A stretch of DNA of 64,000 nucleotides from an uncultured bacterium (GTDB lineage Bacteria; Zixibacteria; MSB-5A5; GN15; FEB-12), in contig CBDVDR010000007.1 of the NCBI GenBank assembly GCA_965372795.1, positions 32,001 to 96,000 of the forward strand. Reading direction: 5' to 3'. Positions within the stretch are counted from its first letter, which is position 1. The number at the start of each line of letters is the position of its first letter. A model generated the notes under the pieces. It did not search any database, was not told where the DNA came from, and saw nothing but the letters and a program-made list of their open reading frames with translations. This document shows, piece after piece, positions 1,900 to 22,356 of the stretch. Both the position numbers and the translations under genes were made by a program.

Positions 1900-1972
1900 T
1901 CCCCTGTAGCTCAGTTGGTAGAGCAGCTGACTGTTAATCAGCGGGTCGCAAGTTCGAGTCTTGCCGGGGGAG
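1900..1972 (+). tRNA. tRNA-Asn(GTT), CCA not encoded; integration target
   Basis: TCCCCTG/CGGGGGA acceptor stem, AGCTCAGTTGGTAGAGC D-arm, CTGA-CTGTTAA-TCAG anticodon arm, GTTCGAGTC T-loop. Confidence 0.97.
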
Positions 1973-3478
1973 CTTTGTTATACGATTTTGCGAACTCCCA
2001 CTAAACTCAGGTAATTCAAAGATATCCAATATAATTTTATCTTGATAAATAATCACATCTTTAAGAATACATTGGATAGCTTCAGCTTGGTCTTTTGGTC
2101 CCAAAGCTTCAAATGCAATGCTGAAATCCTGTAGACTCTTTCTAACTAAATCTGCATCGTATTCTTCAAAAGCTTGTTCATTGATTTTTCTAGTAATTTC
2201 TTCTAATTCAAAATTTAGAATTTTTAAATTCTTTTCTCTAAATTCAATTTCTTTTTCTAAACGATCTATACTAATTTTCCCAACACCAATGGCTTGAACA
2301 TATTTATCAATTTGAGCTTCTAATTCAGAAATTCTCAGTTTGATCTTTTTAGCTTCATCTTCCAAGGGACCAATTTGATTTTTTAAATCACCATTTAGCT
2401 TTTCAATTGATTTATTTAGATAGGTTTCATTTTGGGATAAATCATAAAGATCATTAATTACGATTTTTTCAATTTTATTCGCATTAAAACTCTTAATTTT
2501 ACATACTCGATTACTAAAATTCATCGTTTTAGTACAGCGATAATAAGGTATTCGATTTATTGAGTTATCCTTATTTCTTTTTTGAGTATAATGGGGTGTC
2601 ATAACAGAACCACAATCACTACATCTAATTAAACCTTTTAATAGGTAAACTTTTTCAATCCTTGAAGTAGGATGACTTCTTGTTGGGTGCATTAATTGAA
2701 TTCTCTTAAATAGAGTTTCATCAATTATTGCTTCGTGTTGCCCTTTATAAATCTTTCCCTTTGATCGAGTTTTTCCTATATACACAGGATTTCTTAAAAT
2801 ATGAGCTATTGCACTTTTACTCCATCTACCATTTGATCGTGGTAAATAACCATACTTTTCCAATTCTAAGCGTAAACTACTTAATGAAGGATTTATACCA
2901 AAGTTATTAAACATAAATTTAATAATAGGTTCTTCTTCTGGATTCGGTAGAAGCTTTTTATTTTCCCTCAAATATCCATAAGGAGGTATGCCACCATTCC
3001 ATAAACCTTTTTGTGCTCTCTGTTGCATCTTATCACGTGTTCGATCTGAAATCATTTCTCTTTCAAATTGAGCAAAATCTAAAAGTATATTCCGTAGCAA
3101 GCGACCAGTAGGATGATTAGTATCAATATTTTGTGTAATAGAAACGAAGTTTACATTATATTTATCAAATTCTTCCATTAGAGTATGGAAATCTTTAACT
3201 GATCGAGTCAATCTATCAATCTTATAAACTAAAACACAATTGATTTTTCCTTTTTGGAAATCTCTGATCATTTCTTGTAATGCAGGACGTTTAACAGAAT
3301 CACCAGAAAAACCACCTTCTACATATACACGATAAATCTCATAATTATCCTGACTTTTACAATATGCTTCAAGCTTTTCTTTCTGTGAATCTAGAGAGCT
3401 ATAATCATTCACCATTTGACTACGACTTGATACACGAGTATAAAGAGCACAAATTATTTTATTTTTTTTCTTATCCAT
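1934..3478 (-). CDS. Large serine recombinase (integrase); 3' end runs antisense through the tRNA
   Basis: YTRVSS catalytic motif, KIDRLTRS, recombinase domain, Zn ribbon (CSDCG...YYRC...C), coiled coil; tail LPRQDSNLRPAD is the tRNA antisense. Confidence 0.95.
   Translation of the reverse strand: MDKKKNKIICALYTRVSSRSQMVNDYSSLDSQKEKLEAYCKSQDNYEIYRVYVEGGFSGDSVKRPALQEMIRDFQKGKINCVLVYKIDRLTRSVKDFHTLMEEFDKYNVNFVSITQNIDTNHPTGRLLRNILLDFAQFEREMISDRTRDKMQQRAQKGLWNGGIPPYGYLRENKKLLPNPEEEPIIKFMFNNFGINPSLSSLRLELEKYGYLPRSNGRWSKSAIAHILRNPVYIGKTRSKGKIYKGQHEAIIDETLFKRIQLMHPTRSHPTSRIEKVYLLKGLIRCSDCGSVMTPHYTQKRNKDNSINRIPYYRCTKTMNFSNRVCKIKSFNANKIEKIVINDLYDLSQNETYLNKSIEKLNGDLKNQIGPLEDEAKKIKLRISELEAQIDKYVQAIGVGKISIDRLEKEIEFREKNLKILNFELEEITRKINEQAFEEYDADLVRKSLQDFSIAFEALGPKDQAEAIQCILKDVIIYQDKIILDIFELPEFSGSSQNRITKLPRQDSNLRPAD
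1951..1996 (+). repeat. att site 0 (attL-like): tRNA half + GA core (1970-1971) + P' arm TTGTTATACGATTTTGCGAACT
   Basis: The arm is an imperfect reverse complement of the arm preceding the core at 11732. Confidence 0.85.
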
Positions 3479-4001
3479 TTACATTTTGTAATGGTTTTGA
3501 TCTTGTGATCCACCATTCCTTCAATTTTGAACCTAATATCAATAGTAAGGAACCACCGCCTAAAATCAAAAGGCTAAGATGCATTCCTACAATAGAAGGA
3601 TTTTCTTTTATGTAATTCTCTGCTTCTTTAGATCCGTGGCATTTTAATAAAAGAGAATAACTCAATATCTCTGCTTGAAATTCAGCTTTGGAAGTCTCTA
3701 TTTTATCAATTGAATCAAGGTGTATCATACAGTGTACAATTTCATGAAAAATTGTGTAATCTCTATGAAATTTAGATTTATTTGAATTTATAAAAATTGT
3801 ATTTCGCCCTTCTACAGTAATCGCTTCACCACTAAAATTTTCTGGAAACTTTGAAGATCTATTAATTGGGATATTCAGATGTTTTGCAAGTTTATAGGGA
3901 GATTTAAATGCTTCATTTGGTAGATTATCAAAAGAATCATATAATTTACTATAAGGTTCAAGCAATAAGTTTCGCCAAAAATTTTTAACCTTTTCAGTCA
4001 T
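3471..4001 (-). CDS. ImmA/IrrE-family metallopeptidase (putative anti-repressor) with hydrophobic C-terminus
   Basis: IFIN...R.YTIFHEIVH...EFQAE motif; overlaps the repressor and integrase genes. Confidence 0.8.
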   Translation of the reverse strand: MTEKVKNFWRNLLLEPYSKLYDSFDNLPNEAFKSPYKLAKHLNIPINRSSKFPENFSGEAITVEGRNTIFINSNKSKFHRDYTIFHEIVHCMIHLDSIDKIETSKAEFQAEILSYSLLLKCHGSKEAENYIKENPSIVGMHLSLLILGGGSLLLILGSKLKEWWITRSKPLQNVNG

Positions 4002-4357
4002 CTATTTTTTGCCTTCTTTTTCGCAATATCATTAACAACCTTTAGTACATCTTTAAGTTCTTTTTCAGAAAGAGTACCTGCAGCTCTAAATAACCTAGCC
4101 ATATTTGGCTTGTTATCTGAGAATTTTCCTGCTTCGGCAATAAGTTCATTAGAGTCAATATTTAGTACTTCCGCTATATCTCTAATTTTCTCATTTGAAG
4201 GTGGTTTCTGAATTCCCCGAAGTATCCTAGATAAATAACTAGGATTTATATTTGTTTCTGATGCTAACTTTCTAAGGGACATTCCTTGCTTATCCATCTC
4301 AGATTTTATTTTATCGCTAAAAAACTTACTTTGCTGTTTTTCAATTTTTTCACCCAT
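3998..4357 (-). CDS. XRE-family HTH repressor (ImmR/CI-like)
   Basis: MSLRKLASETNINPSYLSRILRG HTH; likely start MGEK at 4357 with GGAGG upstream. Confidence 0.85.
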   Translation of the reverse strand: MGEKIEKQQSKFFSDKIKSEMDKQGMSLRKLASETNINPSYLSRILRGIQKPPSNEKIRDIAEVLNIDSNELIAEAGKFSDNKPNMARLFRAAGTLSEKELKDVLKVVNDIAKKKAKNR

Positions 4358-4397
4358 TAAGGCAAATCCTCCATCAATTTTAATCAATATCAATAAT

Positions 4398-4481
4398 GTA
4401 TCCCACATAGTCAACACTTTTTTTACTTTTTCTAAGAAATTATTTAAAATAGACAAAATATATGTTGACTATTTAGGATAC
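4398..4481. promoter_or_regulatory. Divergent promoters with paired 19-bp inverted boxes (putative operators)
   Basis: TGTTGACTATGTGGGATAC (minus, 4398-4416) vs TGTTGACTATTTAGGATAC (plus, 4463-4481), 17/19 identical, each containing a TTGACT -35. Confidence 0.65.
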
Positions 4482-4499
4482 GGTTAGTAACCTCTAGGC

Positions 4500-4736
4500 A
4501 TGAAACAAAAAATATTAAAATGCAGAATGTTAGAAATTAGAAAAAATTGGAAAGGCAAAGGCTTGAGTTTAGCACAACTCGCTAACAAGGTCGGTTTAAG
4601 TAGATCATATATTTGCAAGATAGAGCAGAATCATCGAAAGCCAAGTGGTGAGGTCATGCTAAGAATTGCAAATTGTCTTAATTGCCAAGTAGAAGAAATC
4701 TTTTATCTAACAGAAGAAAAAGTTGAGAACTTGTAA
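4500..4736 (+). CDS. Cro-like XRE HTH protein
   Basis: LSLAQLANKVGLSRSYICKIEQ; divergent from the repressor. Confidence 0.85.
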   Translation: MKQKILKCRMLEIRKNWKGKGLSLAQLANKVGLSRSYICKIEQNHRKPSGEVMLRIANCLNCQVEEIFYLTEEKVENL

Positions 4737-4753: not shown

Positions 4754-4939
4754 GTGCCCTATATAAGGCACATAAAGCGAATGAATCAATTAAAAGTTGA
4801 AAGGAGATTTGTACCCATAGAAAAGGTAAAAGCTGAAGAGTTGTCTAACGCTTTTTGGCGAATCTTAGTCGGAGGTGCAATATCTGCAACCTCCATTAAA
4901 CAAAAAATGTCCCTCAAAAAGGAGAATTACAATGGATAA
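4754..4939 (+). CDS. Small hypothetical protein (candidate directionality factor; start may be 4781)
   Basis: Fills the operon between cro and the SpoVG-like genes and overlaps the next start; function is inference from position. Confidence 0.4.
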   Translation: MPYIRHIKRMNQLKVERRFVPIEKVKAEELSNAFWRILVGGAISATSIKQKMSLKKENYNG

Positions 4940-5231
4940 CGAAATAATCGTTGAATTAAGACAAATTGAAGACAATAAATTTTCAAAAGCTAAAGCAGAA
5001 ATAACTCTGCAAACTCCTTTTGGTGAAATTACAATAACTAGAATGAGAGTAGTTCACCAAGATGGTAAAGATCCTTGGGTGGCATTTCCCGAAATACCAT
5101 ATCAACCTAAGGATTCTTCTGAAAAACGATACTTGAAAGTTATTTTGCCAAGTAAAAGATTAAGAGCTGCAATATCAGAAGCAGTACTTAATAAATATGG
5201 GAGTATGAAATTCAATGAGAAATCATTCTGA
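4932..5231 (+). CDS. SpoVG-like nucleic-acid-binding protein
   Basis: AAGGAG RBS; KAKAEITL...ITITRMRVV...WVAFPE resembles SpoVG. Confidence 0.65.
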   Translation: MDNEIIVELRQIEDNKFSKAKAEITLQTPFGEITITRMRVVHQDGKDPWVAFPEIPYQPKDSSEKRYLKVILPSKRLRAAISEAVLNKYGSMKFNEKSF

Positions 5232-5532
5232 TATCACAGCTACAATTCATCTATTTAAAGATGCTCAGAATCTTAAAGCTTATGCTGATGTAGCTATTAA
5301 AACTCGAATAGGCGAAATTACTATTCGTAGATTTAAAGTGATTTCAACTAATTCTGGTAAATTGTGGGTTGCACTTCCCCAATTTGAGTATCAAAAAATT
5401 CTTTCAACTTCTTATGTGGATGCAATTGTAACCACTAAAAGAGCATTTCGCAGAATTCAAAGATTAGTTTTGAATGAATACAAAAAGAAGATTCATCTGG
5501 AAAATTCCCATGTTCAGGTTGATCGCTCCTGA
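5215..5532 (+). CDS. SpoVG-like nucleic-acid-binding protein (paralog)
   Basis: LKAYADV...ITIRRFKVI...LWVALPQ. Confidence 0.7.
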   Translation: MRNHSDITATIHLFKDAQNLKAYADVAIKTRIGEITIRRFKVISTNSGKLWVALPQFEYQKILSTSYVDAIVTTKRAFRRIQRLVLNEYKKKIHLENSHVQVDRS

Positions 5533-5559: not shown

Positions 5560-5661
5560 GAGAGCAGCTTCAAGGCTGCTCTCTGACCGGTGCCCAAGCC
5601 GCCGGGGTCCTATTGGCGAATGCCAATGGGCGGCGGCAACAAAGCGATTGCCCGAAGGGCA
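5560..5661. other. GC-rich multi-hairpin region upstream of rep (candidate single-strand origin or structured RNA)
   Basis: Three hairpins: GAGAGCAGC/GCTGCTCTC; GCCGCC..CCTATTGGC-GAAT-GCCAATGGG..GGCGGC; TGCCC-GAA-GGGCA. Confidence 0.5.
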
Positions 5662-5738
5662 TACTGGCTTCTTGGTTGCTCTTGTTTCTGGCGTCATTTG
5701 TTGTCTATCTGTCAACTCGCAATTTTGGAGGAATTTAT

Positions 5739-6458
5739 ATGGCTTCTTCACTTGATATTAATAAGCATAATCGAAACAAGTTCTGCGGAAGATATTCACT
5801 AAAAGGATATTTAGAACAAAATGGAGAAAAGAAAATTAGATACGCAAGGCTCGGATGTAAAGGATGGAACTGTCAAATATGTGGACCTAGAAAAGCTTCT
5901 AAGTATCGTCATTCAATCAAAGAACAAGCTCTAAAGTTAAACTTAGATAGATTTCTTACATTAACTTTGGATCCCAAAAAATGCAAACCACATAATTCCT
6001 TGCCACATATAAAAAAGAGTTGGGCTAAATTCAGAATTTCTTTAAAAAGAAAATATGGTCATAGCATTTCATTTATCTGTATTGTGGAATTCCAAAAAAA
6101 TGGTTATGCACACTTACATATTCTTGTTGATCGTTTTATACCTCAAAAATGGATATCACACGCTTGGAATTCTGTAGGTGGAGGAAAGATCGCATTTATT
6201 GAGAGAGTTGAATTAAAGAGTATTGCTTATTATATAACTAAATATTTAACTAAAGATACAAACTTCAATAATTCGGGGAAGCGATACCGAAAATGCACAA
6301 CATCTAGAAATATTAAACTAAATTATCATAAGAAATCAGGGAAATGGGTAGTTATGACAGTTCCTATTGAAGAAATACATAATTCTTATAAGAAACAACA
6401 ATCGAAAGAACATAGAGATATGTCTGGGATGTTACATTGGTTTGAGATTTCAGTATGA
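5739..6458 (+). CDS. Rolling-circle replication initiator (HUH endonuclease)
   Basis: GGAGG at 5727 then ATG 5739; CxxxxCxxC, motif I FLTLT, motif II HLHIL, motif III YITKY. Confidence 0.85.
   Translation: MASSLDINKHNRNKFCGRYSLKGYLEQNGEKKIRYARLGCKGWNCQICGPRKASKYRHSIKEQALKLNLDRFLTLTLDPKKCKPHNSLPHIKKSWAKFRISLKRKYGHSISFICIVEFQKNGYAHLHILVDRFIPQKWISHAWNSVGGGKIAFIERVELKSIAYYITKYLTKDTNFNNSGKRYRKCTTSRNIKLNYHKKSGKWVVMTVPIEEIHNSYKKQQSKEHRDMSGMLHWFEISV
5750..5764 (+). other. Putative double-strand origin / nick site (CTTG^ATA)
   Basis: ACTTGATATTAATAA matches 15 consecutive nt of the phiX174 origin and lies inside the 5' end of rep. Confidence 0.7.
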
Positions 6459-7107: not shown

Positions 7108-7584
7108 ATGATTAAAAGACAAGTTTTTATAAGCTTCCATCATAAAAATGAGCAATCTGTAGTAGACGATTTTGTGAATGCATTCAGCACTTACTATGAC
7201 GTTTTTACTGACAGATCTCTTGATAGAGCTGCAGATAGCGATGATACTGAATACTTAAATCAAGTATGTAGAGATGCCATAGAAGGTACAAGTATAACAA
7301 TCGTAATAATAGGTACTGAAACTGGTAAAAGAAAATTTGTAGACTGGGAAATTAAACATACTTTATTAAAAAAACATGGACTTCTAGCTATATTTCGACC
7401 AAACCTAGAAGATCACCTTACAAATTTGCCGAATCGCTTAATTGACAACATAAATTCAGGATATTCAAATTGGTATAAATACCCATCTTCTCCAGAAGAT
7501 CTGCGATTAATGTTAGAAAAAGCATACAATATAAACAAAGCTTTGATAGACAATAGTAGAGAAAAAATGAAAAGAAACCTATAA
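7108..7584 (+). CDS. TIR-domain protein, ThsB/MTH538-like
   Basis: VFISFHH, TSITIVIIGTETGKRKFVDWEI (conserved Glu). Confidence 0.85.
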   Translation: MIKRQVFISFHHKNEQSVVDDFVNAFSTYYDVFTDRSLDRAADSDDTEYLNQVCRDAIEGTSITIVIIGTETGKRKFVDWEIKHTLLKKHGLLAIFRPNLEDHLTNLPNRLIDNINSGYSNWYKYPSSPEDLRLMLEKAYNINKALIDNSREKMKRNL

Positions 7585-7616
7585 TGTTCTTAACGATAAG
7601 CCATTTGAGTATCTAA

Positions 7617-8261
7617 ATGAATATAAATAATTCGTATAAGTGGGATATTTTTATTAGTTACCATAGATTACCTGCAATTGAAAAATGGTTAAAAGAAATA
7701 TTAATTCCTTTACTCGAACTTCATCTACCAAGTTCATTGGGAAGAGAAGCAGATATATTCTGTGATGATAATATAAAAACTGGTAATCATTGGCCAAATG
7801 AATTGAGCGATGCATTAGCATATTCTAAAGTATTGTTACCAATTTGGACTGTACTTTATTTTCATCGAGAATGGTGTTTAAAAGAGTGGTTAACTATGGT
7901 CAACAGAGAATCTAAATTAAATAGTCTTTCAAGGGAAGAGCAATTTACATTAATCAAGCCGATAAGACTACTTGATGGAAATAAATATCCTATATTTGCT
8001 CAAAATACACAAAGTTTAACCTGTACTAATTATTTTACAACTTCTGAATGTTATAAACAAACACTCGAGTATATAAACCTAGAGAAAAAGATAACAGATT
8101 GGTGTAATAATGACTTAGGACAATCGATAGTTACTGCACCACCTTGTCAAGAATTTTGGTTAAATGAAGAATTTTCTAGAAATTCAATAAGAGCTTTAGA
8201 ATCACAAAGTGAAATGCAACCTATTGATTTAAACACAACACCAAGATTAGGTAATGAATGA
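7617..8261 (+). CDS. TIR-domain protein (TIR_2-like)
   Basis: WDIFISY, IFCD..I..G..WP..L..AL..S, YFHREWCLKEW. Confidence 0.85.
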   Translation: MNINNSYKWDIFISYHRLPAIEKWLKEILIPLLELHLPSSLGREADIFCDDNIKTGNHWPNELSDALAYSKVLLPIWTVLYFHREWCLKEWLTMVNRESKLNSLSREEQFTLIKPIRLLDGNKYPIFAQNTQSLTCTNYFTTSECYKQTLEYINLEKKITDWCNNDLGQSIVTAPPCQEFWLNEEFSRNSIRALESQSEMQPIDLNTTPRLGNE

Positions 8262-10747
8262 GTAAAATAATTACATTCTATTCTTACAAAGGTGGAGTTG
8301 GTCGTTCCATGGCATTAGCAAACGTTGCGGTAAAACTATCAGGATTGGGACATAAAACTCTTATAATAGATTGGGATCTTGAAGCTCCAGGATTGGAATT
8401 CTATTTTAAAGAATATTTGGATTTAAGTAAAATAAAAACTAAACCAGGCATTATTGATATTTTAAAAGGAGATCATTCTACAAATTTAAAATCAACTAAA
8501 TGGACAGATTGCATCTCAACAATTAGTATTGATAATGCAACTCCATCCATACATTTTATATCATCAGGTAGCAACAAAGATAATTATTATAAAAAAGTAC
8601 AAGAATTTGATTTAGATAGTTTCTTTAATAAGAATAAAGGACAATCCCTGTTATACGAATTAAGAAATGAATGGTTAAATACTTATGACTTTATCCTCAT
8701 CGATAGTCGTACTGGCATTACAGACTATGGAGGAATTTGTACTATTCTTTTACCAGATGTAAACATACTATTTGTGACAACTAACGATCAAAGTCTTACA
8801 GGTAGTGAATATGTATTTGAAAAAGCGCATCAAATTAGAAAACAACTCCCTTACGATTATGAAAACATTATTTTTGTTCCAATATTAAGTAGATATGATG
8901 CTACTGAAGAATATCAAATTTCACAAGATTGGATAAAAAAAATAGATAAATCATTGTCTAAACTTTATGAGAAATGGACACCAAGGAACATTATAACAGA
9001 AGAACTAATTCAACAAACAAGCATTCCTTATATCCCATATTTTAGTTACGGTGAAAGACTTGCAGTTTTAGAAGAAAGTTCATCAATGACTAGATCTTTA
9101 AGCAATGCATATGAGAACCTTTCAGCATTAATTGCAAATAATTTCCAATATCTTGATGATATGATAAATAATCGAAGAAGTTTTTTAGCAAGAGCTTCAA
9201 AAATAAAAAATAAAGATGACTTAAGATTGAGACACACTGTTCCGCTTGTAAATTCTCCAGATTTAATCCATTTAAATTATGATAATCATCAAAAATGGTT
9301 AAGTACAAATGGTTCTGCAGGAGATCAAATGGATATAAAAAACAAAGAATTTTTAAATTTAGAACTTTTTGATCTTAATTTAGGCAAGTCCGAATTCAAC
9401 ACTTCAACAATGAAGAACTCCAATTTCACTTTTATTGATTTTTCTCATTCATCTTATAGATATAGTAATTTTTCGGGATCCAAATTTACATCTTCAAACC
9501 TATCATCTATAGATGGTTTTAATGCAATCTATATTAATGTCATATTTGATGGTGTAAGCGCTACACTATCCGATTTGTCTACTAGCAATTTAACAGATGC
9601 TATAATTAAAAACTCTGATTTTTTTCAATCAAATTTAGATGATTGTAATATGCAAAATTCCAAACTTCAAAATTCAAACTTTGATCTTGCTAGTTTTAAA
9701 AATTCTGATTTGAACTCTTCGAATCTCGAGCATTCAAATTTTTATAGATCTAATTTTGCAAATGCAAACCTTAGATCATGCATTTGTTATGATGCAGATT
9801 TTAAAGGGGCTAACTTCAGTGATGCTAATCTAGCATATGCAAAGGGATTAAAAGAATCTCAACTAAAAATGACAATATTAGATTTTGCAAAATTACCTGA
9901 TCATATAAATTTTAGTGATTCACTAAATTCTTTTGGTAAAAATTTAAAAAGTGTACAGAGTTCATTTTGGATAACATCTATAATTGCACTTACTTATTTG
10001 TTTGCTCTTATAAATTACTTAACAATCGGTAACTCTAAAGAGTTTATTATTTTTTTACCAAATCTCCAAAATTTCGCCATTCCACAAATAATTGCAATTA
10101 TAATTTCCATGTACTAGTCACAAAGTTTATGGGATAAAATATCAAAATTACCATGTAGTTTTCCTGATGGTAAAACTCTTCATGAAAAAGGAGATTCTAT
10201 TTTTTTTGTAGGAAATATTTTTCCTACGCTCCAGAGAAATAACATAAGAGCTAATCCATTTAGGAGTATTCTATTCATAAGTTTGTATTGGGGATCTACA
10301 TCTATAATCTATGTTTCTGGTGCTTTTGTCATTTATACATATCCTAATTTTTATCCAGATACTAATTTCACTTTTTCCTTTATAGTTGCAATTTCATTAA
10401 GTTTAATAGGAATTTTATCATATTTTTATTCTAATATAAAGTTAGCTAAAAATAATAGACCAAGTTTTATTTGTTCTCACGAAGTAGCATTATTTAATTT
10501 GCCAAAAAAAATGTTTAAATATGAAATGTTAGATTTATTAGATAATTATGGAAGAATCTTAAGTTTAAGAAAAACAATTAGTATCAATGATGATATAGTG
10601 TGGAGTGTAAGGTTAGAGAGTAATTTTCAGGTACAAAAAGTGATAAAAAGTCTTGATCGTAGTAATTTTCATAATAAAGTGATAAGAGCTATTGGTATAC
10701 CGATTGGAGAGGAATTATCTAAAACTCTATATAATAGAGTCAAATAA
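8258..10747 (+). pseudogene. ParA-like (KGGVGR) ATPase + pentapeptide repeats + TM segments + RRM-like tail; one in-frame TAG at 10115-10117
   Basis: YSYKGGVGRS deviant Walker A, DWDLEAPG, DSRTG; pentapeptide repeats; the frame stays open after the TAG (SQSLWDKISKLPCSFPDGKTL...) and joins ORF 10283-10747. Confidence 0.7.
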
Positions 10748-11557: not shown

Positions 11558-11729
11558 AAAATACACCCTTATTTTTATAAGATTTAGCCTAATTTATTGA
11601 AAATATACTAAGAAGTCAATATAGTTACAATATAACAAATTACCTGAAGATAAGACCATTTTTGAATAACTTTATATCAAAAAAAAAAAATTAAATTTAA
11701 CTTATATAGATCGTTTTATAACGAATCTA

Positions 11730-11814
11730 ATAGTTCGCAATTCGTACAATACGGGGAGCTTAAGTTTTTCTACTCAACAACTTACTAAAATTCAATTTGT
11801 ACGGATTGCGAACT
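11730..11814 (+). repeat. att site 1: arm + GA core (11756-11757) + IHF-like box + displaced inverted arm
   Basis: AGTTCGCAATTCGTACAA (11732-11749) and TTGTACGGATTGCGAACT (11797-11814) form a 17/18 inverted repeat; the 32 bp at 11730-11761 are identical to 12579-12610. Confidence 0.9.
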
Positions 11815-12606
11815 TATGTTATAATTGATGATCAAGTCTAATTATTGTATATTATATTTTTGAAATTGAATGATTGAAATGATAATTAGTTTTATGATTA
11901 ATTTATATCCATGAGGTGTGTATGGAAAACAGTGAATTGATTCTAGAATATTTAAAGATATTTCTTACTTGGCCGGTTATTGGAGGTGTATTACTATTAA
12001 TTTTTATTTTCAATTTCAAATCTTCCATTGTAGGAATATTTAACAGAATAAGGAGTGCTAAGGTTGGTAATGTAGAATTTGAAGCCCCACTTATTCAAAA
12101 AGAGCTGAGTGATATAAAATCAGATCATACATTACTTGATAGTAATGTTATAGTGAACGATTCAAATGATAACTCAATTGATGAACAGACTTATAAGGAA
12201 AAATATGAAACCTTATTGGGGTTATATAACGATATTCAATTAGAATTTTATTTTGAAATGTTACTTAATATTTTATTTGGCACACAATTAAGATTATTAC
12301 AATCTATAAATAATATCGGAGATGATGGTATTGACTTAGATCGTATTTATCCTTTCTATAATGAGAATCTCTCTAAGAGCAAATTAACCAATTGGGGAGT
12401 CAATGATTTTTTGAGAATCTTAATTAATTACAATATAATTAATAAGAATGAATCTACGAATAAATATCAAATTACTCCAAATGGAACTAATTTTTTGTCA
12501 TATGTTGAAAAAAATCATAACCATAAATTTCAATCATTACAGTTTTAATATTATTTATCTATTAACAGCTTGAACCTTATAGTTCGCAATTCGTACAATA
12601 CGGGGA
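11756..12606. mobile_element. Unit 2: single-gene, integrase-less cassette (849 bp core to core)
   Basis: Flanked by identical 32-bp direct repeats. Confidence 0.8.
11922..12548 (+). CDS. Membrane-anchored hypothetical protein with a possible C-terminal winged helix
   Basis: GAGGTG RBS; N-terminal TM (LTWPVIGGVLLLIFIF); C-terminal YQITPNGTNFL. Confidence 0.7.
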   Translation: MENSELILEYLKIFLTWPVIGGVLLLIFIFNFKSSIVGIFNRIRSAKVGNVEFEAPLIQKELSDIKSDHTLLDSNVIVNDSNDNSIDEQTYKEKYETLLGLYNDIQLEFYFEMLLNILFGTQLRLLQSINNIGDDGIDLDRIYPFYNENLSKSKLTNWGVNDFLRILINYNIINKNESTNKYQITPNGTNFLSYVEKNHNHKFQSLQF

Positions 12607-12667
12607 GCTTTATTAATTCTCTTTCATATCAACAACTTACAACATTACAGATTGTACCTTTTCGACT
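12579..12667 (+). repeat. att site 2: arm + GA core (12605-12606) + IHF box + degenerate arm
   Basis: ATAGTTCGCAATTCGTACAATACGGGGAGCTT; TATCAACAACTTA at 12627-12639 fits WATCAANNNNTTR; TTGTACCTTTTCGACT. Confidence 0.88.
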
Positions 12668-12754
12668 AATCAATTTCTAGAAAATCTGAAACTTATATAA
12701 TAATCTTATTTTGTAAGTAGGAACGAAAATTAATCTTCCATCTGTTAGAAATAA

Positions 12755-12982
12755 TTGTTTTTCCTGTAGTTTGTGAACTGGTTCATCTAGGAAGTAGTAT
12801 TCACCCTCGGTCGCTGCATCGAGCATCCCGATAATGTTAAGCTGGGCTGAATTTCCTGCACCCTAAGGTCCCATGACGGTGACGAAGTCACCATCGTAGA
12901 TTTCCAATTTAACATGCCTGAGAACGTATGTGTTCACGCCACCGTTCTTATAGCTCTAGGTTATGTTGTCAAGTCTGATCAT
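12755..12982 (-). pseudogene. Truncated ABC ATP-binding gene
   Basis: MIRLDNIT*SYKNG...DFVTVMGP*GAGNS..LNIIGMLD...GEYYF; two TAG, broken Walker A, cut off near the cassette end. Confidence 0.8.
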
Positions 12983-13015
12983 AATGTCAATATCCTTCGA
13001 AAGTAATTCTTTGTT

Positions 13016-13086
13016 CTATTCATGTCGTATCGCGTCAATCGGATTGGCGATTAACGCGACGTTATGGACAGTCGCCTAGTGTGCAT
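13016..13086 (-). pseudogene. C-terminal remnant of an ABC permease paralog
   Basis: ALIANPIDAIRHE* matches the permease C-terminal motif. Confidence 0.6.
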
Positions 13087-13094
13087 AATTTTGT

Positions 13095-15470: not shown

Positions 15471-15494
15471 GAATGTACACTCACTTTCTAAAAC

Positions 15495-15662
15495 CTATTC
15501 ATATTTTAGTGATTCAATCGGATTAGACGAAGCTGTCTTTATCGCTTGATAGCTATCAACAAAGCGAGCAATGCCGTTAGCCAGCCCGACTATATTGAGT
15601 AGAGTAATACCGTCCTGACGACGGGTCGATCTCAACGCGATCTTGAGAAAGTTCTTAAGCAT
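15495..15662 (-). pseudogene. 55-aa internally deleted permease paralog (N- and C-termini fused in frame)
   Basis: MLKNFLKIALRSTRRQDGITLLNIVGLANGIARFVD-SYQAIKTASSNPIESLKYE*. Confidence 0.75.
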
Positions 15663-16341
15663 GACGAGTCTTTATGTCTTCTGTTACAACAGCGCCATCG
15701 AAAAGGTTGATGGTACGACTGCAGTAGTCAGCGAATGCCTGAGAATGAGTGACCATTACGATCGTAGTGCCTTCTTCATTGAGTTTCGTCAGGCAGGTCA
15801 TCACATCCTGTCCGTGGGCTGAGTCAAGATTGCCGGTTGGTTCATCGGCGAGAATCAGTCTTGGATTGGCAACAACTGCTCTTGCAACAGCCACACGTTG
15901 TTGTTGACCACCTGATAACTGTTGTGGGAAATGCTTTGAACGGGCAATGATCTCAAACTCTTTAAGTGCCTTGTTGACGCGTGTTCTTCTCTCAGATGCG
16001 GCTATCCCGAGATAGAGAAGAGGCAGTTCGACATTCTCAAAGATGTTCAGTTCATCAATCAGGTTAAAATTCTGAAAGACAAACCCGATGTTGTTCTTGC
16101 GAAGACTGGCTCTTTGACGTTCGGTATATTTGGAGACTTCAGTTCCGAGCAAATGATATTCTCCCCCGGTTGGGTTATCCAGAAGTCCAAGAACATTCAG
16201 CAGAGTTGATTTGCCACAACCAGATGGTCCCATAATTCCGACAAACTCACCTTCTGCGATGTGGATTCCAATATCGTTTAGTGCCGTTGTCTCGATGTCT
16301 TCGGTGCGGTAAGTTTTTTGCAGGTTGACGGTACGAATCAT
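15655..16341 (-). CDS. ABC transporter ATP-binding protein (MacB/LolD-like)
   Basis: GPSGCGKS, LSGGQQQR, ILADEPTGNLD; start MIRTVNL with AGGAG RBS. Confidence 0.93.
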   Translation of the reverse strand: MIRTVNLQKTYRTEDIETTALNDIGIHIAEGEFVGIMGPSGCGKSTLLNVLGLLDNPTGGEYHLLGTEVSKYTERQRASLRKNNIGFVFQNFNLIDELNIFENVELPLLYLGIAASERRTRVNKALKEFEIIARSKHFPQQLSGGQQQRVAVARAVVANPRLILADEPTGNLDSAHGQDVMTCLTKLNEEGTTIVMVTHSQAFADYCSRTINLFDGAVVTEDIKTRHA

Positions 16342-16378
16342 GGTTATTACTCCTTTTAACATTGTCATTATATTTTTC

Positions 16379-17629
16379 CTATTTAAATACGAGTTGGTCA
16401 ATTTCGCCAAAAGTTTCATAGGAGGAAGTAACCACTTTTTCCCCCGGTTTAAGACCTTCAAGTACTTCGTAGTAGATTGAATTTGAACGCCCCAATCGGA
16501 TAACACGTTTTTTGGCCAGATTGTCTGTCTCATCTACAACATAAACCCATTGACCACCCGTGCTTTGCCAGAAAGCTCCACGCTTAATCAGAATTGCCTC
16601 GGAGGAGCCACCCAGATTAAGGCGGATACGAAGTGTTTGGCCACGTCGGATTCCTTTTGGAGCACTTCCGATAAATTGCAGGTCCACTTCAAAGCGACTG
16701 TTAACAACCTCAGGGTAAATTTTCTCAACCAGCAGTTCAATGTCTTCATCATCAAAAGTAGAGGTTGCTTTTTGTCCGACCTGTACTCTTGAGAGATAAT
16801 GCTGGTCCACCTGGACTCTCGCTTTGAAACCTACCGGGATATCTATTCTCCCCAACTGTTCACCACGATTCTTAGTTTGTCCAATTTCTGCATTCAACGA
16901 AGTCAACTGCCCGTCTATCGGGGCTCGTAACGTAAGATTATCGAGTTTTTGTTTTACCATATCAAAATTGTCTTCCATGCGTGTCAATCCCTCTTGAAGT
17001 TGACCAACCTGAGTCTCCCTGAAAACAGAATCTTGTCGAGCATTTTCAACTGTTAACTCAAACTTAGCGGCGTAGTACTCAAATGTCTCTTTGGCTTCAT
17101 CGAACATTCTCACCGAGATTAACTCCTTTGTCAGAAGCGCTCGAAATTCTTCGTAAGTACGCTTTTTCTGAGATAATTGGTACTTGAGATCAAGCAGTTG
17201 TTCGGCCATTCGAAGCCGATTCTGCTGCATAGCTAAACGAGTGTTTCGTAAGTTATTCGATTGCTGAAAAAGCTCTGCTTCACGAAACATGATATCCAAA
17301 AGAAGATTAGTATTAGCCAGTCGCAGAATAGGGTCGCCTTTGTTGACATAAGAACCTGCCTCAACAAATACCGAGTCCACCTGTCCACCTTCAGTTGCAT
17401 CCAGAAATATCGTCCGAAGAGGAATCACTGTGCCTGTTTCAGGAATGAACTCCTGAAATTCACCTACGGTTACATCTGAAATAGAAATACGTTCGATATC
17501 GACACTGAGTCTGGAACTGTGATCTCCAAAAATTAGATTGTATAGAATTAAAATAGTCGCCAGTCCACCCACTGATAAGTAAGCAATCATTTTGATTGTC
17601 CAGAATTTCCGTTCGATCAGTCTATCCAT
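16379..17629 (-). CDS. Efflux periplasmic adaptor (HlyD/MFP family)
   Basis: N-terminal TM, lipoyl-like EGGQVDSVFVE.G..V.KGDPI, long helical hairpin. Confidence 0.88.
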   Translation of the reverse strand: MDRLIERKFWTIKMIAYLSVGGLATILILYNLIFGDHSSRLSVDIERISISDVTVGEFQEFIPETGTVIPLRTIFLDATEGGQVDSVFVEAGSYVNKGDPILRLANTNLLLDIMFREAELFQQSNNLRNTRLAMQQNRLRMAEQLLDLKYQLSQKKRTYEEFRALLTKELISVRMFDEAKETFEYYAAKFELTVENARQDSVFRETQVGQLQEGLTRMEDNFDMVKQKLDNLTLRAPIDGQLTSLNAEIGQTKNRGEQLGRIDIPVGFKARVQVDQHYLSRVQVGQKATSTFDDEDIELLVEKIYPEVVNSRFEVDLQFIGSAPKGIRRGQTLRIRLNLGGSSEAILIKRGAFWQSTGGQWVYVVDETDNLAKKRVIRLGRSNSIYYEVLEGLKPGEKVVTSSYETFGEIDQLVFK

Positions 17630-17724
17630 ACGAGAGATGTCACTCATACACTATTTCTCACAATCTATGTTGCAGTTCAATATTTTTAAGACGGCCAAAT
17701 AGCGTCTCGGTTGCTAAAAGACAT

Positions 17725-17833
17725 TACAATAATCGTGCCAGTTCAAGTAAGTCGTTGTTATACAACAAAACTAATGGTATTGCGGTGGGGTTTTACTGCC
17801 CGCTTATGGAGGTTTGCTGTACGAATGCGTACA
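17725..17833 (-). promoter_or_regulatory. Sigma54 promoter with IHF-like site and activator UAS for the exporter operon
   Basis: TGGCACGATTATTGTA (-24/-12, 17740-17725); TAACAACGACTTA IHF-like box; TGT-N10-ACA palindrome at 17818-17833. Confidence 0.7.
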
Positions 17834-18006
17834 CTAAATCCCTTGCCCCAAAGCAACTATCGGATTACTTTGTATGTAAGTCACTGTTAATCAACGATCT
17901 GAATTGTTTTCTCGTGATGGTATGTTTTCTGCTTTCATCTTTACATTGAAAGCAACAACGATTAGAAATGCACAAGAAGTGAAAGTGACAATGGAGTGTG
18001 TGACGA

Positions 18007-19392
18007 ATGAGCGAATTGAATTTTAGTTCAAGCCGAATCCTTGTAGTCGATGACGACCCTGATGTGCTTTTGGCGGCACGACTTCTGCTTAAGCAGCATG
18101 TCGCCGAGGTAGTCACCGAACCTGATCCCAATCGAATCCAAGAACATCTTGGCACGAGCGATTTTGATATCGTGATGTTGGATATGAATTTTACACGGGA
18201 TCAAACGAGCGGTGAAGAGGGGCTCCATTGGCTCAAGCAGATTTTGAAATGGGATCCCGAGATGGTCGTAGTAATGATCACTGCATACGGTGACGCCGAA
18301 ATTGCCGTTCACACGATCAAGAGCGGAGCGACTGATTTTGTTCTAAAGCCGTGGCAAAATGAAAAGCTGCTTGCCACGATGTTCTCCTCTCTGAAGCTTC
18401 ACCACTCACAAAAAGAGGTTGAGAATCTTAAGCAGTCTCGACGACAGTTAAGTGCCGACATGGATCAGCCGTTTGGGGATTTTATTGGTTCAAGTAAGGC
18501 AATGAAAGAGGTGATCGCCACTATCGCAAAGGTGGCGGTAACCGACGCGAACGTTTTGATAACAGGGGAGAACGGGACTGGTAAAGAATTGGCCGCAAGG
18601 GCAGTTTACCGACGATCGCTTCGTGCTGGTGAAGTATTTGTCAAAGTTGATATGGGATCAATAGCCGAGACGCTGTTTGAATCGGAGCTGTTTGGTCATG
18701 TAAAGGGAGCTTTCACCGATGCGAGAGAAGATCGCGCAGGCAGATTTGAGATTGCATCAGGGGGGACGCTTTTCCTCGACGAAATCGGAAATACTCCGAT
18801 CACACTACAGGCTAAACTATTGACCGTTTTGCAAAGTCGCCAGGTTACCAGAGTAGGTTCAAATAGTACAACACCAATTGATATTAGACTAATATCAGCC
18901 TCGAATATGCCGCTCGAGGAATTGGTCGAAAATAAGCTCTTTCGCCAGGATTTGCTCTATCGAATCAATACCATAGAGATTGTTTTACCGCCACTCAGAG
19001 AGAGGATTGATGATATTGATGATCTGGCAGAGTATTATCTCAAGATGTATGCGGGGAAATATAAGAAGAGCGTGAATGGTATCACGCCTGCTGGAATTAA
19101 TAAGCTCAAATGCCAACCCTGGCGCGGCAACATAAGAGAGCTTCAGCATACGCTCGAACGAGCGGTTATAATGAGCGAGTCGGATCAGTTGACACCGGAT
19201 GATTTCCCGTTTAGTCAAAGTGGTGATTTGGCTGACTCAAAACTTATGGCGAGTCATAATTTGGAAAAGATTGAGCGGACTATAATTGTTCGCGTACTCT
19301 CTTTGAATGACAACAATATCAGCCATGCTGCCGAAGTATTGGGACTCACACGCACATCACTTTATCGTCGTATGCAAAAACATGGTCTTTAA
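18007..19392 (+). CDS. Sigma54-dependent response regulator (NtrC family)
   Basis: Receiver domain, GENGTGKE, GAFTDA, C-terminal Fis HTH. Confidence 0.95.
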   Translation: MSELNFSSSRILVVDDDPDVLLAARLLLKQHVAEVVTEPDPNRIQEHLGTSDFDIVMLDMNFTRDQTSGEEGLHWLKQILKWDPEMVVVMITAYGDAEIAVHTIKSGATDFVLKPWQNEKLLATMFSSLKLHHSQKEVENLKQSRRQLSADMDQPFGDFIGSSKAMKEVIATIAKVAVTDANVLITGENGTGKELAARAVYRRSLRAGEVFVKVDMGSIAETLFESELFGHVKGAFTDAREDRAGRFEIASGGTLFLDEIGNTPITLQAKLLTVLQSRQVTRVGSNSTTPIDIRLISASNMPLEELVENKLFRQDLLYRINTIEIVLPPLRERIDDIDDLAEYYLKMYAGKYKKSVNGITPAGINKLKCQPWRGNIRELQHTLERAVIMSESDQLTPDDFPFSQSGDLADSKLMASHNLEKIERTIIVRVLSLNDNNISHAAEVLGLTRTSLYRRMQKHGL

Positions 19393-20728
19393 GCATTTTA
19401 GAATACAAATAATCTCGCGCGTTCTCATTTTATGTGTGACTATTTTGGCTGCAGCCTGGCTCCTGAGTGCAACTGAAAAGTATGCCACGACCGGGATGGT
19501 TATCCTATTGTTCATTCTACAGGTGATCTTTCTCATTCGATTTGTTGAAAAAACAAATCACACGATGGCAGAGTTCCTGCAAGCGATTGAATACGACGAT
19601 TTTACTCAGTCTTTCGGGAATGTTGCAAGCGGCAAATCGTTCGACGAGTTGAATCAGGCCTTTGTTAAAGTTTCTGCGAATTTCCGAGAGGTTCGTCTGG
19701 GGAGGGAGGAAAATTACAGATACTTGCAGACGGTCGTTCAGCATGTTGGAGTCGGCATGGTAGCATTTCAGGAGAGCGGAGAGGTCGAACTTTTTAACTC
19801 TACCGCCAAGAAGATACTGCAATTGGCTTCATTGAAGAATATCAATGACCTTAAAATGAAAAGTCCGGAACTTTTAGAACGTATTAAATTTCTCAATCCG
19901 GGAGAGCGCGATCTGGTTCGAGTCACAATTGATAAAAACTTGGTACAACTGTCTCTTTTTATGACTATCCTTAGGATGCGCAATCGCAAAATAACTCTGG
20001 TGTCGTTTCAGAATATCTCCGCTGAGCTTAACGAAAAAGAGATGCAGGCATGGCAGAATCTTATCAGGGTGTTCACTCACGAAATAAAAAACTCTTTGAC
20101 GCCGATCAGTTCTTTGGCTGGAACTATAGAAACTCTCTTAGTTCCAATTACGTCGCAACTAAACGTGAAGAATCGGGAGAGCATTACTGATATCTCCGAG
20201 GCTCTTACGACAATCAAGAGTCGTTCAGAAGGCTTACATGAGTTTATTAATGCTTATCGTGATCTGACAAACCTTCCCCAACCTGTGTTTGAATCGTTCA
20301 AGGTGACCTCTATGTTTGAGCGGGTTGGACAGCTTGTGAAAGATCAAATTCAATCTGGGGGGATTAATTACTGTGTAGAACTATCGAATCAAACCCTCTC
20401 GGTTACAGCAGACAGCAAAATGATCGAACAGGTGTTGATCAATCTGATCCTTAACTCAATCCAGGCTTTGAATGGATGTGAAAAACCGAAATTAAAAGTG
20501 TGTGGGTTTGTTGATTATCAGAATCGAGTAACAATTACTGTCGAAGACAATGGCCCGGGGATTGCGAATACGGCGATTGACAAAATATTCGTACCGTTTT
20601 TTACTACTAAGAAAACCGGCTCAGGAATTGGCCTAAGTCTGTCAAGGCAAATCATGCGTCTTCACAAAGGTGAACTAACTGTTTCGTCTGAACCAGATAA
20701 ACGCACAATCTTAACCATGCGCTTCTAA
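19382..20728 (+). CDS. Sensor histidine kinase (NtrY-like)
   Basis: Two TMs, PAS-like region, THEIKNSLTPI H-box, DNGPG and GSGIGL boxes. Confidence 0.93.
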   Translation: MVFKHFRIQIISRVLILCVTILAAAWLLSATEKYATTGMVILLFILQVIFLIRFVEKTNHTMAEFLQAIEYDDFTQSFGNVASGKSFDELNQAFVKVSANFREVRLGREENYRYLQTVVQHVGVGMVAFQESGEVELFNSTAKKILQLASLKNINDLKMKSPELLERIKFLNPGERDLVRVTIDKNLVQLSLFMTILRMRNRKITLVSFQNISAELNEKEMQAWQNLIRVFTHEIKNSLTPISSLAGTIETLLVPITSQLNVKNRESITDISEALTTIKSRSEGLHEFINAYRDLTNLPQPVFESFKVTSMFERVGQLVKDQIQSGGINYCVELSNQTLSVTADSKMIEQVLINLILNSIQALNGCEKPKLKVCGFVDYQNRVTITVEDNGPGIANTAIDKIFVPFFTTKKTGSGIGLSLSRQIMRLHKGELTVSSEPDKRTILTMRF

Positions 20729-21109
20729 GATGACCATTTGAGCCACAATTGATTATCTGCTTAGGAATTCTCTGCCAGCATAATCACGACAAGATGCAAT
20801 AAAATCTACCATAAAGCCTGTGCTATTTAAATACCGTTTCAACATTCTTGAATTCAGTTTCCATCTGACATAAAGAAAAATGTGTCTTAGATTTCAACTA
20901 CACTTGTCCGGATTGTTTGAAGACATTCAATTCTTTATTCCTAAATTTCATTATATCAACTATGCTTATGCCGCAGTTCTAAATTAGTCCACGATGGCCC
21001 GCCATTATATTTATTATTTCCGAATAGTGGTTCAAATCCTTTTGCTTGCCATATGTGTCCCTAATTTAAAAGGATATTGAAGTAATAACATTGTTAGAAT
21101 ACATCAAAA

Positions 21110-21195
21110 AGTTGCGAAATTCGTCTAATTGGGGGAGCTTTATAATCATAAAAATTTGAACCACTTACACAATAGCTTTATCGCACATTCGAACT
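21110..21195 (+). repeat. att site 3: arm + GA core (21135-21136) + IHF-like box + degenerate arm
   Basis: AGTTGCGAAATTCGTCTAATTGGGGGAGCTT ... TGAACCACTTAC ... TTCGAACT. Confidence 0.8.
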
Positions 21196-21291
21196 TTAAG
21201 CCACTCTTTCTCGTTATTCCACTATCAGTTAAGGAAAGTTGTATAGCTTTTTAACAGCTTGTACTTTTACTCTTTAATCCTGTTCAATAAA

Positions 21292-21308
21292 TAGACTTGA
21301 CAAGTCTA
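21292..21308 (+). promoter_or_regulatory. TTGACA -35 inside a perfect 8-1-8 palindrome (putative operator)
   Basis: TAGACTTG-A-CAAGTCTA. Confidence 0.5.
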
Positions 21309-21388
21309 CGCATTTTTTTAATTTAACTTTGTACTTATAAAATACTACTCAATTTTTTATAAATCGAAAACAGATGAAAGGTTTTAAT

Positions 21389-22159
21389 ATGAAGTACTTA
21401 TTTATTCTTGTTGTTCTTTGCCTGCTGATAATTGGCTGTTCTGATAATCCCGTCAAAAGCAGTAACGGTTTTATTTCCGTAGAATCCTTTGATGCTCCTG
21501 CTCCGGAAGGCATTGAGCATTTATATTTACATGTTCTTGAAGTATCAACTCATCATTCAGATGACGGTTGGATAGTTTTATCGGAACCTGATACGGTCAT
21601 CGATTATATGGAATTGATAAACGGTATAACTGTTTTGTTAGCCGATAGCGTTTCTCTCCCTGTTGGTGACTACGAGCAAATGAGACTGTTGTTGTCTGAC
21701 TCCAATGAAATTGTTATTGAAGGCACAACTTATGACTTAACTACGCCAAGTGCGCAACAATCCGGGATTAAACTCAATCTGAATTTTTCTGTTGAAGAGA
21801 ACCAACTGATAGAAATCTATGTTGATTTTGATATTTCAAAATCAGTTATCAGTGCCTCATCAAAGTATATACTCACTCCGACATTCCGTGCTTTCAAACA
21901 AATTTTATCTGGCACTATTGCCGGAACAGTCGTTGATGCTCTTGGCGACCCGCTTGAAAATATAACGATTGACGTTGCTGGAGTAGAATATGCAACATCA
22001 ACAATTACTGATGCTGAAGGCAATTATCTTTTGATACTTCCTGAAGATACCTATGATATTACTGCAACAGCTGAAAATCTGACAGCTAATAAGACTTATA
22101 CCGGCGTAGAGTTAAATCCTCTTGATGAATTGACAGGATTTGATTTTATAATGGAATAA
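21389..22159 (+). CDS. DUF4382-like lipoprotein with a C-terminal carboxypeptidase-regulatory-like Ig domain
   Basis: Lipobox IIGC; DAP..., GDYEQMRL, TPSAQQSGIKL, VDFDISKS; GTIAGTV...G.Y. Confidence 0.8.
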   Translation: MKYLFILVVLCLLIIGCSDNPVKSSNGFISVESFDAPAPEGIEHLYLHVLEVSTHHSDDGWIVLSEPDTVIDYMELINGITVLLADSVSLPVGDYEQMRLLLSDSNEIVIEGTTYDLTTPSAQQSGIKLNLNFSVEENQLIEIYVDFDISKSVISASSKYILTPTFRAFKQILSGTIAGTVVDALGDPLENITIDVAGVEYATSTITDAEGNYLLILPEDTYDITATAENLTANKTYTGVELNPLDELTGFDFIME

Positions 22160-22177
22160 TGATAAAAATAATAGATC

Positions 22178-22206
22178 AAACCGCCTGATTTTCAGGCGGT
22201 TTTTTT
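22178..22206 (+). terminator. Intrinsic terminator
   Basis: ACCGCCTGA-TTT-TCAGGCGGT followed by a T run. Confidence 0.85.
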
Positions 22207-22325
22207 GTCAATTAATATAAAAGCTAAACTCTTTGATTGTTGATCAGGTTACCTATAAGAGAAGAGCAAACTTCATCCACAATTTCTTAGATTTTCTCAA
22301 AAAAACTGCTGATCGTTGCTCAACC

Positions 22326-22356
22326 AGTTACAAAACTCGTCCAATTGGGGGAGCTT
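22326..22356 (+). repeat. att site 4 (distal attR-like end of the array), GA core at 22351-22352
   Basis: AGTTACAAAACTCGTCCAATTGGGGGAGCTT; not followed by the IHF box or inverted arm. Confidence 0.8.

Follow-up and report, generated by a model that had tools for sequence, protein, structure and literature searches.

The window analysed here is a 64,000-nucleotide stretch of DNA from an uncultured bacterium of the Zixibacteria (NCBI GenBank assembly GCA_965372795.1, contig CBDVDR010000007.1, positions 32,001 to 96,000 of the forward strand), and the system in question is an island that abuts a tRNA-Asn gene, together with the large serine integrase encoded at its tRNA-proximal end. The integrase reading frame spans the crossover, and four further copies of the 9-bp recombination core lie downstream, each of which opens an alternative C-terminal tail on the minus strand in the frame of the integrase. 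The favoured overall explanation, which is judged probable, is that of a composite island of stacked related elements, in which the tail is a by-product of the dyad symmetry of the element's attachment site (attP). The four downstream sites are most likely the P arms (P and P′ being the two arms of attP) of four stacked related elements, three of which are without an integrase.

The integrase is a large serine recombinase, as is evident from (i) a catalytic domain (PF00239 Resolvase, 9.3e-42, residues 11-159), (ii) PF07508 Recombinase (5.1e-16) and PF13408 Zn_ribbon_recom (2.2e-14) domains, and (iii) dyad-symmetric att sites. Its R15-V16-S17 segment is near-invariant among 35 homologues. Pfam finds serine-recombinase domains only and no catalytic domain of a tyrosine recombinase, whereas Mx8 and SSV1, named as analogies in an initial annotation of this DNA, have tyrosine integrases; a serine precedent is DsiB (PMC3146451).

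The target is the single tRNA-Asn gene of the assembly (3.35 Mb). The final 40 nt of the integrase gene, or 13 residues, are tRNA-Asn antisense and give the protein the C-terminus SSQNRITKLPRQDSNLRPAD, directly followed by the stop codon. The core GGGGAGCTT occurs five times in the window (starting at 1967, 11753, 12602, 21132, and 22348), always on the plus strand and never on the minus strand, and all five copies are confined to 20.4 kb; the genome holds 20 copies on both strands, with about 0.12 expected per 20 kb. The core of the left junction (attL) is read by the integrase frame as K-L-P, while homologues elsewhere have W-L-P. Lysine (AAG) replaces tryptophan (TGG) in the window integrase because its tRNA-Asn gene encodes no CCA, of which TGG is the antisense.

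In the mechanism proposed, attP would lie inside the 3′ end of the integrase gene, with the crossover in the K/W-L-P codons that are antisense to the tRNA 3′ tip. Integration would swap the last 12-30 codons for whatever the antisense tRNA encodes, and excision would restore the tail encoded by the P arm. The initial annotation had likewise placed attP within the gene, with an integrated form that ends in tRNA-antisense residues and an excised form that would end in residues encoded at the far end of the element, and this arrangement is borne out. Its placement of the crossover in the Leu codon also stands: in the site rebuilt from attL and the first downstream site (site 1), the dyad centre falls in this codon, within 1-2 nt.

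The tail swap is real and general across the integrase family, and a reading frame that runs over the crossover is a family-wide trait. Homologues at E ≤ 1e-20 number 4278 among the candidates scored, and the best 120, which are 52-60% identical to the window integrase, were classified by script. Tails of the tRNA-antisense type (xDSNx) account for 101 of these 120, while eight proteins stop no more than two codons after W-L-P, five carry P-type tails, one falls under "other", and five were left unclassified. Inspection by eye assigns P0004 of the last five to the P type and P0047 and P0110 to the tRNA type, and the remaining two are truncated. Examples of the tRNA type are WLPGLDSN and KLPRLDSNQRPAD, each ending at a stop codon, which are antisense of the tRNA T arm; the integrated-form tails of homologues extend from 1 to 88 residues past W-L-P. 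Natural P-type tails resemble those at downstream sites 1/2 and 3/4, for instance P0018 (with WLPVLYELRTLNF) and P0035 (with WLPQVDDFRTFL).

The same pattern is seen at the level of loci. In metagenome-assembled genomes of Planctomycetales, Krumholzibacteriota, Nitrospira, and Latescibacterota, the frames of the close relatives without exception run into tRNA-Asn or tRNA-Ala in antisense, and the stop codon lies within the antisense tRNA at 31 of 183 evaluable related loci, nine amino-acid specificities being represented. Three close relatives have a recognisable right junction (attR), with the P-arm tails WLLVLDGLRTLRVEFARSF (to the stop), WLPGLYPRRTLRF (continuing), and WWSKLNDLRTISFDSI (to the stop). 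The window's own genome encodes two further large serine recombinases, L002 (G000:C10:63201-67478) and L003 (G000:C4:22109-26485), which are 27-29% identical to the window integrase and end inside antisense tRNA-Ser(TGA) and tRNA-Ser(GCT), respectively. As judged by eye from translations, the upstream neighbour is a Rep-like gene for L003 and a tyrosine-recombinase-like gene for L002. A metagenome scan for relatives kept 80 of 594 loci, few of them close, and a protein search with the C-terminus of P0018 alone gave four matches. The best relatives in viral contigs are at most 46% identical and match only in part, so phages of that collection do not typically carry this family; the best matches in phage and plasmid collections are at most 38% identical.

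The sequence of the tail itself is most readily understood from the symmetry of attP. Because the attP of a serine integrase is a dyad, reverse-complementing the P′ arm would yield the P arm in the same codon phase, and the (E/D)-(L/F)-R-T of the tail would result from translating the antisense of the codons for the integrase's (G/S)-S-Q. In the site rebuilt from attL and site 1, read in the integrase sense, AGTTCGCAAAATCGTA and TACGAATTGCGAACT lie on opposite sides of the core as an inverted repeat; 20 nt separate the CGTA and TACG blocks, and the alignment has one single-base gap. The symmetry was assessed by local alignment of P′ with the reverse complement of P and by counting how many of 2000 shuffles reach the observed score. 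For the window attL, these counts are 0 with site 1, 1 with site 2, 13 with site 3, and 90 with site 4, and for the related loci L016, L020, L185, and L018 they are 0, 0, 12, and 149, respectively. Inverted-repeat arms are thus present in four of the five complete attPs (at most 12/2000 shuffles).

About the central Leu, the mirrored codons pair as follows: Q(-5) CAA with L(+7) TTG, S(-6) TCG with R(+8) CGA, and S/G(-7) AGT/GGT with T(+9) ACT/ACC. The conserved residues of the tail are therefore the in-phase antisense of the integrase's penultimate peptide (S-S-Q versus L-R-T), because attP is an inverted repeat. The two arms also change together. The main family has GGT/AGT TCG CAA in P′ and TTG CGA ACT in the P arm, while the subfamily of L185, L021, and L181 has GGT TTG AAA (G-L-K) in P′ and L185, whose attP is uninterrupted, has TTT CAA ACC (F-Q-T) in its P arm; the peptide pair shifts from S/R to L/Q, as base pairing demands. 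Across 11 loci with a GC content of 0.30-0.62, synonymous positions are fixed: Ser(-6) is TCG in 8/8, Leu(-6) TTG in 3/3, and Arg(-3) CGT in 11/11, and position -7 of P′ is NGT in 11/11 although the residue is G, S, or C. Such fixation at synonymous positions, together with the co-variation of the arms, is the hallmark of a DNA-binding site and not of a selected peptide. When the ends of integrase open reading frames (ORFs) outside tRNA genes were scanned for attP-like inverted repeats, only short internal hairpins came up.

These results bear directly on the possibility that the P-arm tail is a functional C-terminal module, by which the circular and integrated enzymes would differ in the manner of a directionality or stability switch and for which the downstream sites would be kept as alternative tails. 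Several features are compatible with it. Every P-type tail seen extends at least 12 residues past W-L-P, at each of the four sites frame 0 is longer than either of the other two frames, and P0018 shares VLYELRT with sites 1/2 at 7 of 7 positions though the proteins are only about 57-59% identical overall. The authors of the dsiB study (PMC3146451) put forward the same idea. The conserved residues, however, are explained by dyad symmetry and co-vary with the P′ arm, the fixed synonymous positions of that arm mark a constraint on DNA, and integrated tails that run anywhere from 1 to 88 residues past W-L-P are hard to square with a specific "off" state. Taken together, a functional module is quite improbable. 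The "LPxLxExR" motif, which the initial annotation took for a selected helical tail, is best explained by a DNA-level constraint from the dyad, to judge from the sequences, and not by protein selection.

Structure prediction points in the same direction. The tail was modelled against the rest of the protein with AlphaFold2, using the natural homologue P0018 (tail VLYELRTLNF...). The model has a mean predicted local distance difference test score (pLDDT) of 81.8 and two long helices, 349-396 and 402-434, of the coiled-coil insert. Residues 488-525, which start 12 residues before W-L-P and run to the end of the protein, have a pLDDT below 50, and the tail is free of helix. On the favoured explanation, the tail would be a tolerated and probably unstructured by-product. 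A more elaborate version of the functional module, in which the C-terminus of the enzyme depends on whether the element is integrated, with the P-arm tail tuning synapsis or directionality and the circle making an integration-competent isoform while the prophage makes another, is very improbable; the directionality or stability switch proposed earlier finds no support in the range of integrated tail lengths, in a motif that the dyad explains, or in the low pLDDT of the tail.

The tails at the four downstream sites, read on the minus strand in the integrase frame, match those first reported exactly (Table 1), and sites 1, 2, and 4 do share the same stop, at codon 20. The synonymous differences that had been singled out are also present (ATT/ATA and AGA/AGG in sites 1/2, TTA/TTG and GAA/GAG in sites 3/4), but they are few. 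Over the whole tails, synonymous and non-synonymous codon differences number 2 versus 6 for sites 1/2 and 2 versus 9 for sites 3/4 (4 versus 15 in total). Inside the homologous first 13 codons they number 2 and 0 for sites 1/2 and 2 and 3 for sites 3/4, and past codon 13 the paired sites have nothing in common, which also speaks against a functional module. The open frames are of unexceptional length: from a random start on the minus strand of the AT-rich island, the probability of meeting no stop is 0.32 for at least 16 codons and 0.59 for at least 7. The first 10 or so tail codons are set by the binding site, and the open length past the motif is within chance. At each downstream site, the frame would be open because the related element's own integrase had to read through the P arm.

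Where the frame of site 4 ends, a terminator-like hairpin with a T run lies on the minus strand (22327-22309). As a native terminator, this candidate was rejected, the ACACA/TGTGT hairpin being weak (z = +1.44) and uncalled by the terminator scan. A terminator search in the tails of sites 1-3 found none.

Site 1 is likely the cognate attR of the intact element because it best mirrors the present P′ arm. Whether the present integrase could pair attL with all of sites 1-4 and excise circles of variable cargo, as proposed for cis-mobilisable elements (CIMEs) and ssrA islands, is a separate matter. The identical 9-bp core at 5/5 sites means that any crossover dinucleotide inside the core would match. 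Over the first 10 tail codons (30 nt), the P arms of sites 1 and 2 are identical, site 2 is as good a mirror of P′ as site 1, and site 3 still exceeds chance; a precedent is discussed in PMC3146451. The arm of site 4, on the other hand, has its motif decayed from CGC to TGT, and no candidate for a recombination directionality factor was identified. An active modular system of this kind is somewhat doubtful, although excision with downstream sites that would take extra cargo along is plausible in view of the precedent. The initial proposal that every site serves the present integrase goes too far: the present P′ arm is mirrored well by the P arms of sites 1 and 2 (0-1/2000), less well by that of site 3 (13/2000), and only marginally by that of site 4 (90/2000).

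The layout of the island (1967-22356) suggests how the array may have arisen. It consists of four segments, A to D, each of which ends on the side away from the tRNA in a P arm and the same 9-bp core, and segments B, C, and D are each without a recombinase. The intact element, segment A, occupies the tRNA-proximal 9.8 kb at a GC content of 0.299, in the lowest 0.07% of the genome's 8.5-kb windows (mean GC 0.381, standard deviation 0.020). Segment B is 0.85 kb long, with a GC content of 0.255 and one gene. Segment C, 8.5 kb enclosed by sites 2 and 3, has a GC content of 0.433, in the top 0.7% of such windows, and is probably acquired DNA of an origin unlike that of the AT-rich element. Each downstream site would be the present or former P arm of a related element whose integrase read through it, and the array would have been built by tandem accretion, that is, by successive integrations beside the tRNA with loss of the older integrases. 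The case for accretion, which is most likely, is made from layout and composition because no integrase remnants are found and the tRNA-proximal ends do not align.

If a single att site and its flank had been duplicated locally, the pairs 1/2 and 3/4 would instead each go back to one integration, and the island would comprise two elements, not four. The left arms are indeed alike in pairs, sites 1 and 2 across 30 nt (0/1000 shuffles reach the score) and sites 3 and 4 across 28 nt (1/1000); the right flanks of sites 1 and 2 are similar across 38 nt (1/1000), and segments B (0.85 kb) and D (1.2 kb) are short single-gene stretches. Yet the similarity stops within about 50 nt of the core on either side, the segments that follow are unrelated and form no tandem unit, and the right flanks of sites 3 and 4 are not shared (238/1000). 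Duplication is unlikely on this evidence.

Stacked elements with by-product tails remain the favoured explanation, with several observations that weigh against it. A serine integrase is not expected to target attL, which makes the build-up of the array hard to account for. Segments B-D yielded no pseudogene remnant of an integrase, tblastn gives no integrase fragment elsewhere in the window (best E = 3.7), and where these segments begin on the tRNA side, they do not align with the integrase 3′ end above shuffles. A P′-type 9-mer, TTGCGAACT, which has 11 copies in the genome, four of them in the island, has an exact copy at 11806, 45 nt and not 13 nt from the site-1 core, and misfits a simple junction; it may be a displaced or degenerate half-site where segment B starts. 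With regard to the dyad, one of the five complete attPs, that of L018, does not rise above shuffles (149/2000), the co-variation of the arms comes from one subfamily, in which L185 alone provides a P arm, and the sample of P-arm DNA comprises eight sites only. As for the tail, a low pLDDT is no proof of disorder, because folding could occur upon contact with DNA or a partner. In Mx8, moreover, integration alters the 3′ end of the int gene and the behaviour of the enzyme, according to the review PMC6070905, an observation that also speaks for a functional tail.

The right flanks of sites 1-3 were also tried as remnants of integrase 3′ ends and rejected, with 225-481 of 500 shuffles reaching the score, and 69-956 of 1000 in the comparison with attL. 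A search for the empty site by synteny found the DUF4153 protein of the right flank in 13 of 31 genomes (the window's own counted), with 37-60% identity in relatives; none of the nine DUF4153 loci scanned has tRNA-Asn alongside, and the relatives are too distant to define the bacterial site (attB). Among public runs, only Logan contigs from one marine study contain 0.05-0.10 of the element's words; those of three runs cover it in fragments, with no joint at any att site, and carry no weight in either direction.

Among the large serine integrases, those of the phiC31, Bxb1, A118/LI, and TP901-1 type combine Resolvase, Recombinase, and zinc ribbon domains with a long coiled coil and act on short, dyad-symmetric att sites. 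They integrate unidirectionally, and excision requires a recombination directionality factor. The attP sites of the phiC31/Bxb1 type lie outside the coding region, and the targets are mostly protein-coding genes. The window integrase resembles this type in domain order and is unlike it in having attP inside its gene and a tRNA target. The ICESt1-related elements, which Pavlovic and colleagues are said to have described in 2004, reportedly have a tyrosine integrase and long identical repeats. As in cis-mobilisable elements of the ICESt1 type and their tandem accretion, att-bounded segments without an integrase (B-D) lie in the window beside an intact element at the same target.

The closest precedent is provided by the ssrA islands of Dehalococcoides (McMurdie et al. 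2011, PMC3146451). The gene of the large serine recombinase DsiB adjoins attL, and the dsiB frame always crosses attL into the antisense of the target RNA gene. The islands are arranged in tandem, bounded by short direct repeats downstream of the target, and some have no integration module, which is ascribed to accretion; DsiB is proposed to be fully functional perhaps only on the circle or beside an adjacent island. The likeness to the window lies in the integrase frame that passes over attL into target antisense, in the tandem repeats, and in the integrase-less units. It is a likeness of layout, and the dyad explanation of the tail is not given in PMC3146451. The targets also differ, DsiB using the T-loop of ssrA (tmRNA) with a 20-bp repeat and the window integrase the extreme 3′ tip of tRNA-Asn with a 9-bp core, and the window lacks the six-gene integration module of the ssrA islands, which includes a second, small serine recombinase (DsiA) and homologues of RecF, ParB, and Mom. 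The genes beside the window integrase (M78 peptidase, XRE helix-turn-helix (HTH) regulator, SpoVG-like, and Rep) are unlike that module.

Mx8 IntP/IntX and the SSV-type integrases likewise have attP inside int, such that integration changes the 3′ end of the gene (PMC6070905, PMC4383910). They are tyrosine recombinases with another chemistry and another site architecture, and the window enzyme shares their tail swap, not their membership. According to the Islander paper (2015, PMC4383910), no serine integrase was known to use a tRNA gene as its target. In the full-text literature within reach, which leaves subscription journals and supplements outside, no description of a tRNA-targeting family of serine integrases or of the mirror-tail explanation was found.

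The window is a clear example of widespread serine integrases that insert at tRNA 3′ tips and whose genes extend across their own recombination sites. The clade is very large and uncharacterised, with relatives spread over many uncultured phyla. For annotation, this implies that most database C-termini in the family of the window integrase are tRNA-antisense read-through and not the native end. For mechanism, one stretch of DNA serves to encode protein, to provide a predicted protein-binding dyad, and to rebuild a tRNA end, and a constraint on DNA can mimic peptide conservation. With respect to tools, the predicted attB lies within a tRNA gene, a kind of gene that is conserved across bacteria. 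Were the C-terminus indeed written by the integration state, the enzyme would contain a built-in state sensor, and stacked P arms would offer alternative isoforms and cargo sizes.

Table 1. Features of the tRNA-Asn island and its attachment sites (positions in the window; tails are given to the stop codon).
Feature	Positions	Strand	Evidence or remark
tRNA-Asn (GTT), integration target	1900-1973	+	ARAGORN
Large serine integrase, 514 aa; Resolvase + Recombinase + Zn_ribbon_recom	1934-3478	-	ORF, Pfam
attL core GGGGAGCTT	1967-1975	+	Spans tRNA-Asn 3′ end; integrase codons K-L-P on minus strand
attL P′ arm, encodes ...FSGSSQNRIT	1976-2005	-	Half-site AGTTCGCAAAATCGT; 9-mer TTGCGAACT at 1988 on plus strand
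ImmA/IrrE-type metallopeptidase, upstream of integrase gene	3471-4001	-	Pfam Peptidase_M78 2.5e-08
XRE-type HTH regulator, upstream of integrase gene	3998-4456	-	Pfam HTH_3 4e-12
SpoVG-like ORFs	4875-5231; 5215-5532	+	Pfam SpoVG (below cut-off; at cut-off)
Rolling-circle-type Rep	5613-6458	+	Pfam REP_ORF2-G2P 2.3e-15
Cargo: ThsB-like TIR, second TIR, ParA-like P-loop with pentapeptide repeats	7108-10117	+	Pfam; PADLOC
Site 1: core 11753-11761 + P arm + tail KLPVLYELRTIRFVIKRSI	11702-11761	-	Best mirror of present P′ arm
P′-type 9-mer TTGCGAACT, possibly displaced	11806-11814	+	45 nt right of site-1 core
Site 2: core 12602-12610 + P arm + tail KLPVLYELRTIRFKLLIDK	12551-12610	-	Closes segment B; GC jumps just past site 2
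Segment C: MacB/FtsX-type ABC permease, ABC ATPase, HlyD-type adaptor, sigma-54 response regulator, histidine kinase	12611-21131		Pfam
Site 3: core 21132-21140 + second-lineage P arm + tail KLPQLDEFRNFLMYSNNVITSISF	21066-21140	-	
Segment D: single DUF4382 lipoprotein gene (21374-22159)	21141-22347		GC 0.347, 1.2 kb
Site 4: core 22348-22356 + decayed P arm (motif CGC to TGT) + tail KLPQLDEFCNWLSNDQQFF	22297-22356	-	

The cargo genes of the intact element resemble a candidate defence module. PADLOC assigns ThsB together with the candidate families PDC-M50B and PDC-M28B, and no ThsA-like partner for the ThsB-like TIR protein was seen. Among the related loci, L016 (the Planctomycetales relative) holds at 2283-2303 a 21-nt copy of the tRNA 3′ end, about 160 nt past the P arm of its attR, which looks like a remnant of an older junction. 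At seven more distant serine-integrase loci with 38-45% identity (L182, L191, L196, L198, L227, L234, and L246), perfect inverted repeats, 55-316 nt long, flank the integrase gene, and at their outer ends they carry 4-9 nt of the tRNA 3′ end. The second repeat copy lies about 0.2-3.9 kb upstream of the integrase gene, and its core is inverted; hence it is not a normal attR. Such repeats bracketing the integrase gene are absent from the window. On the left flank of the island, the product of the gene at 416-1654 has two PDZ domains along with long repeat stretches, acidic D/F/H-rich ones and GL(Q/R/K) ones.

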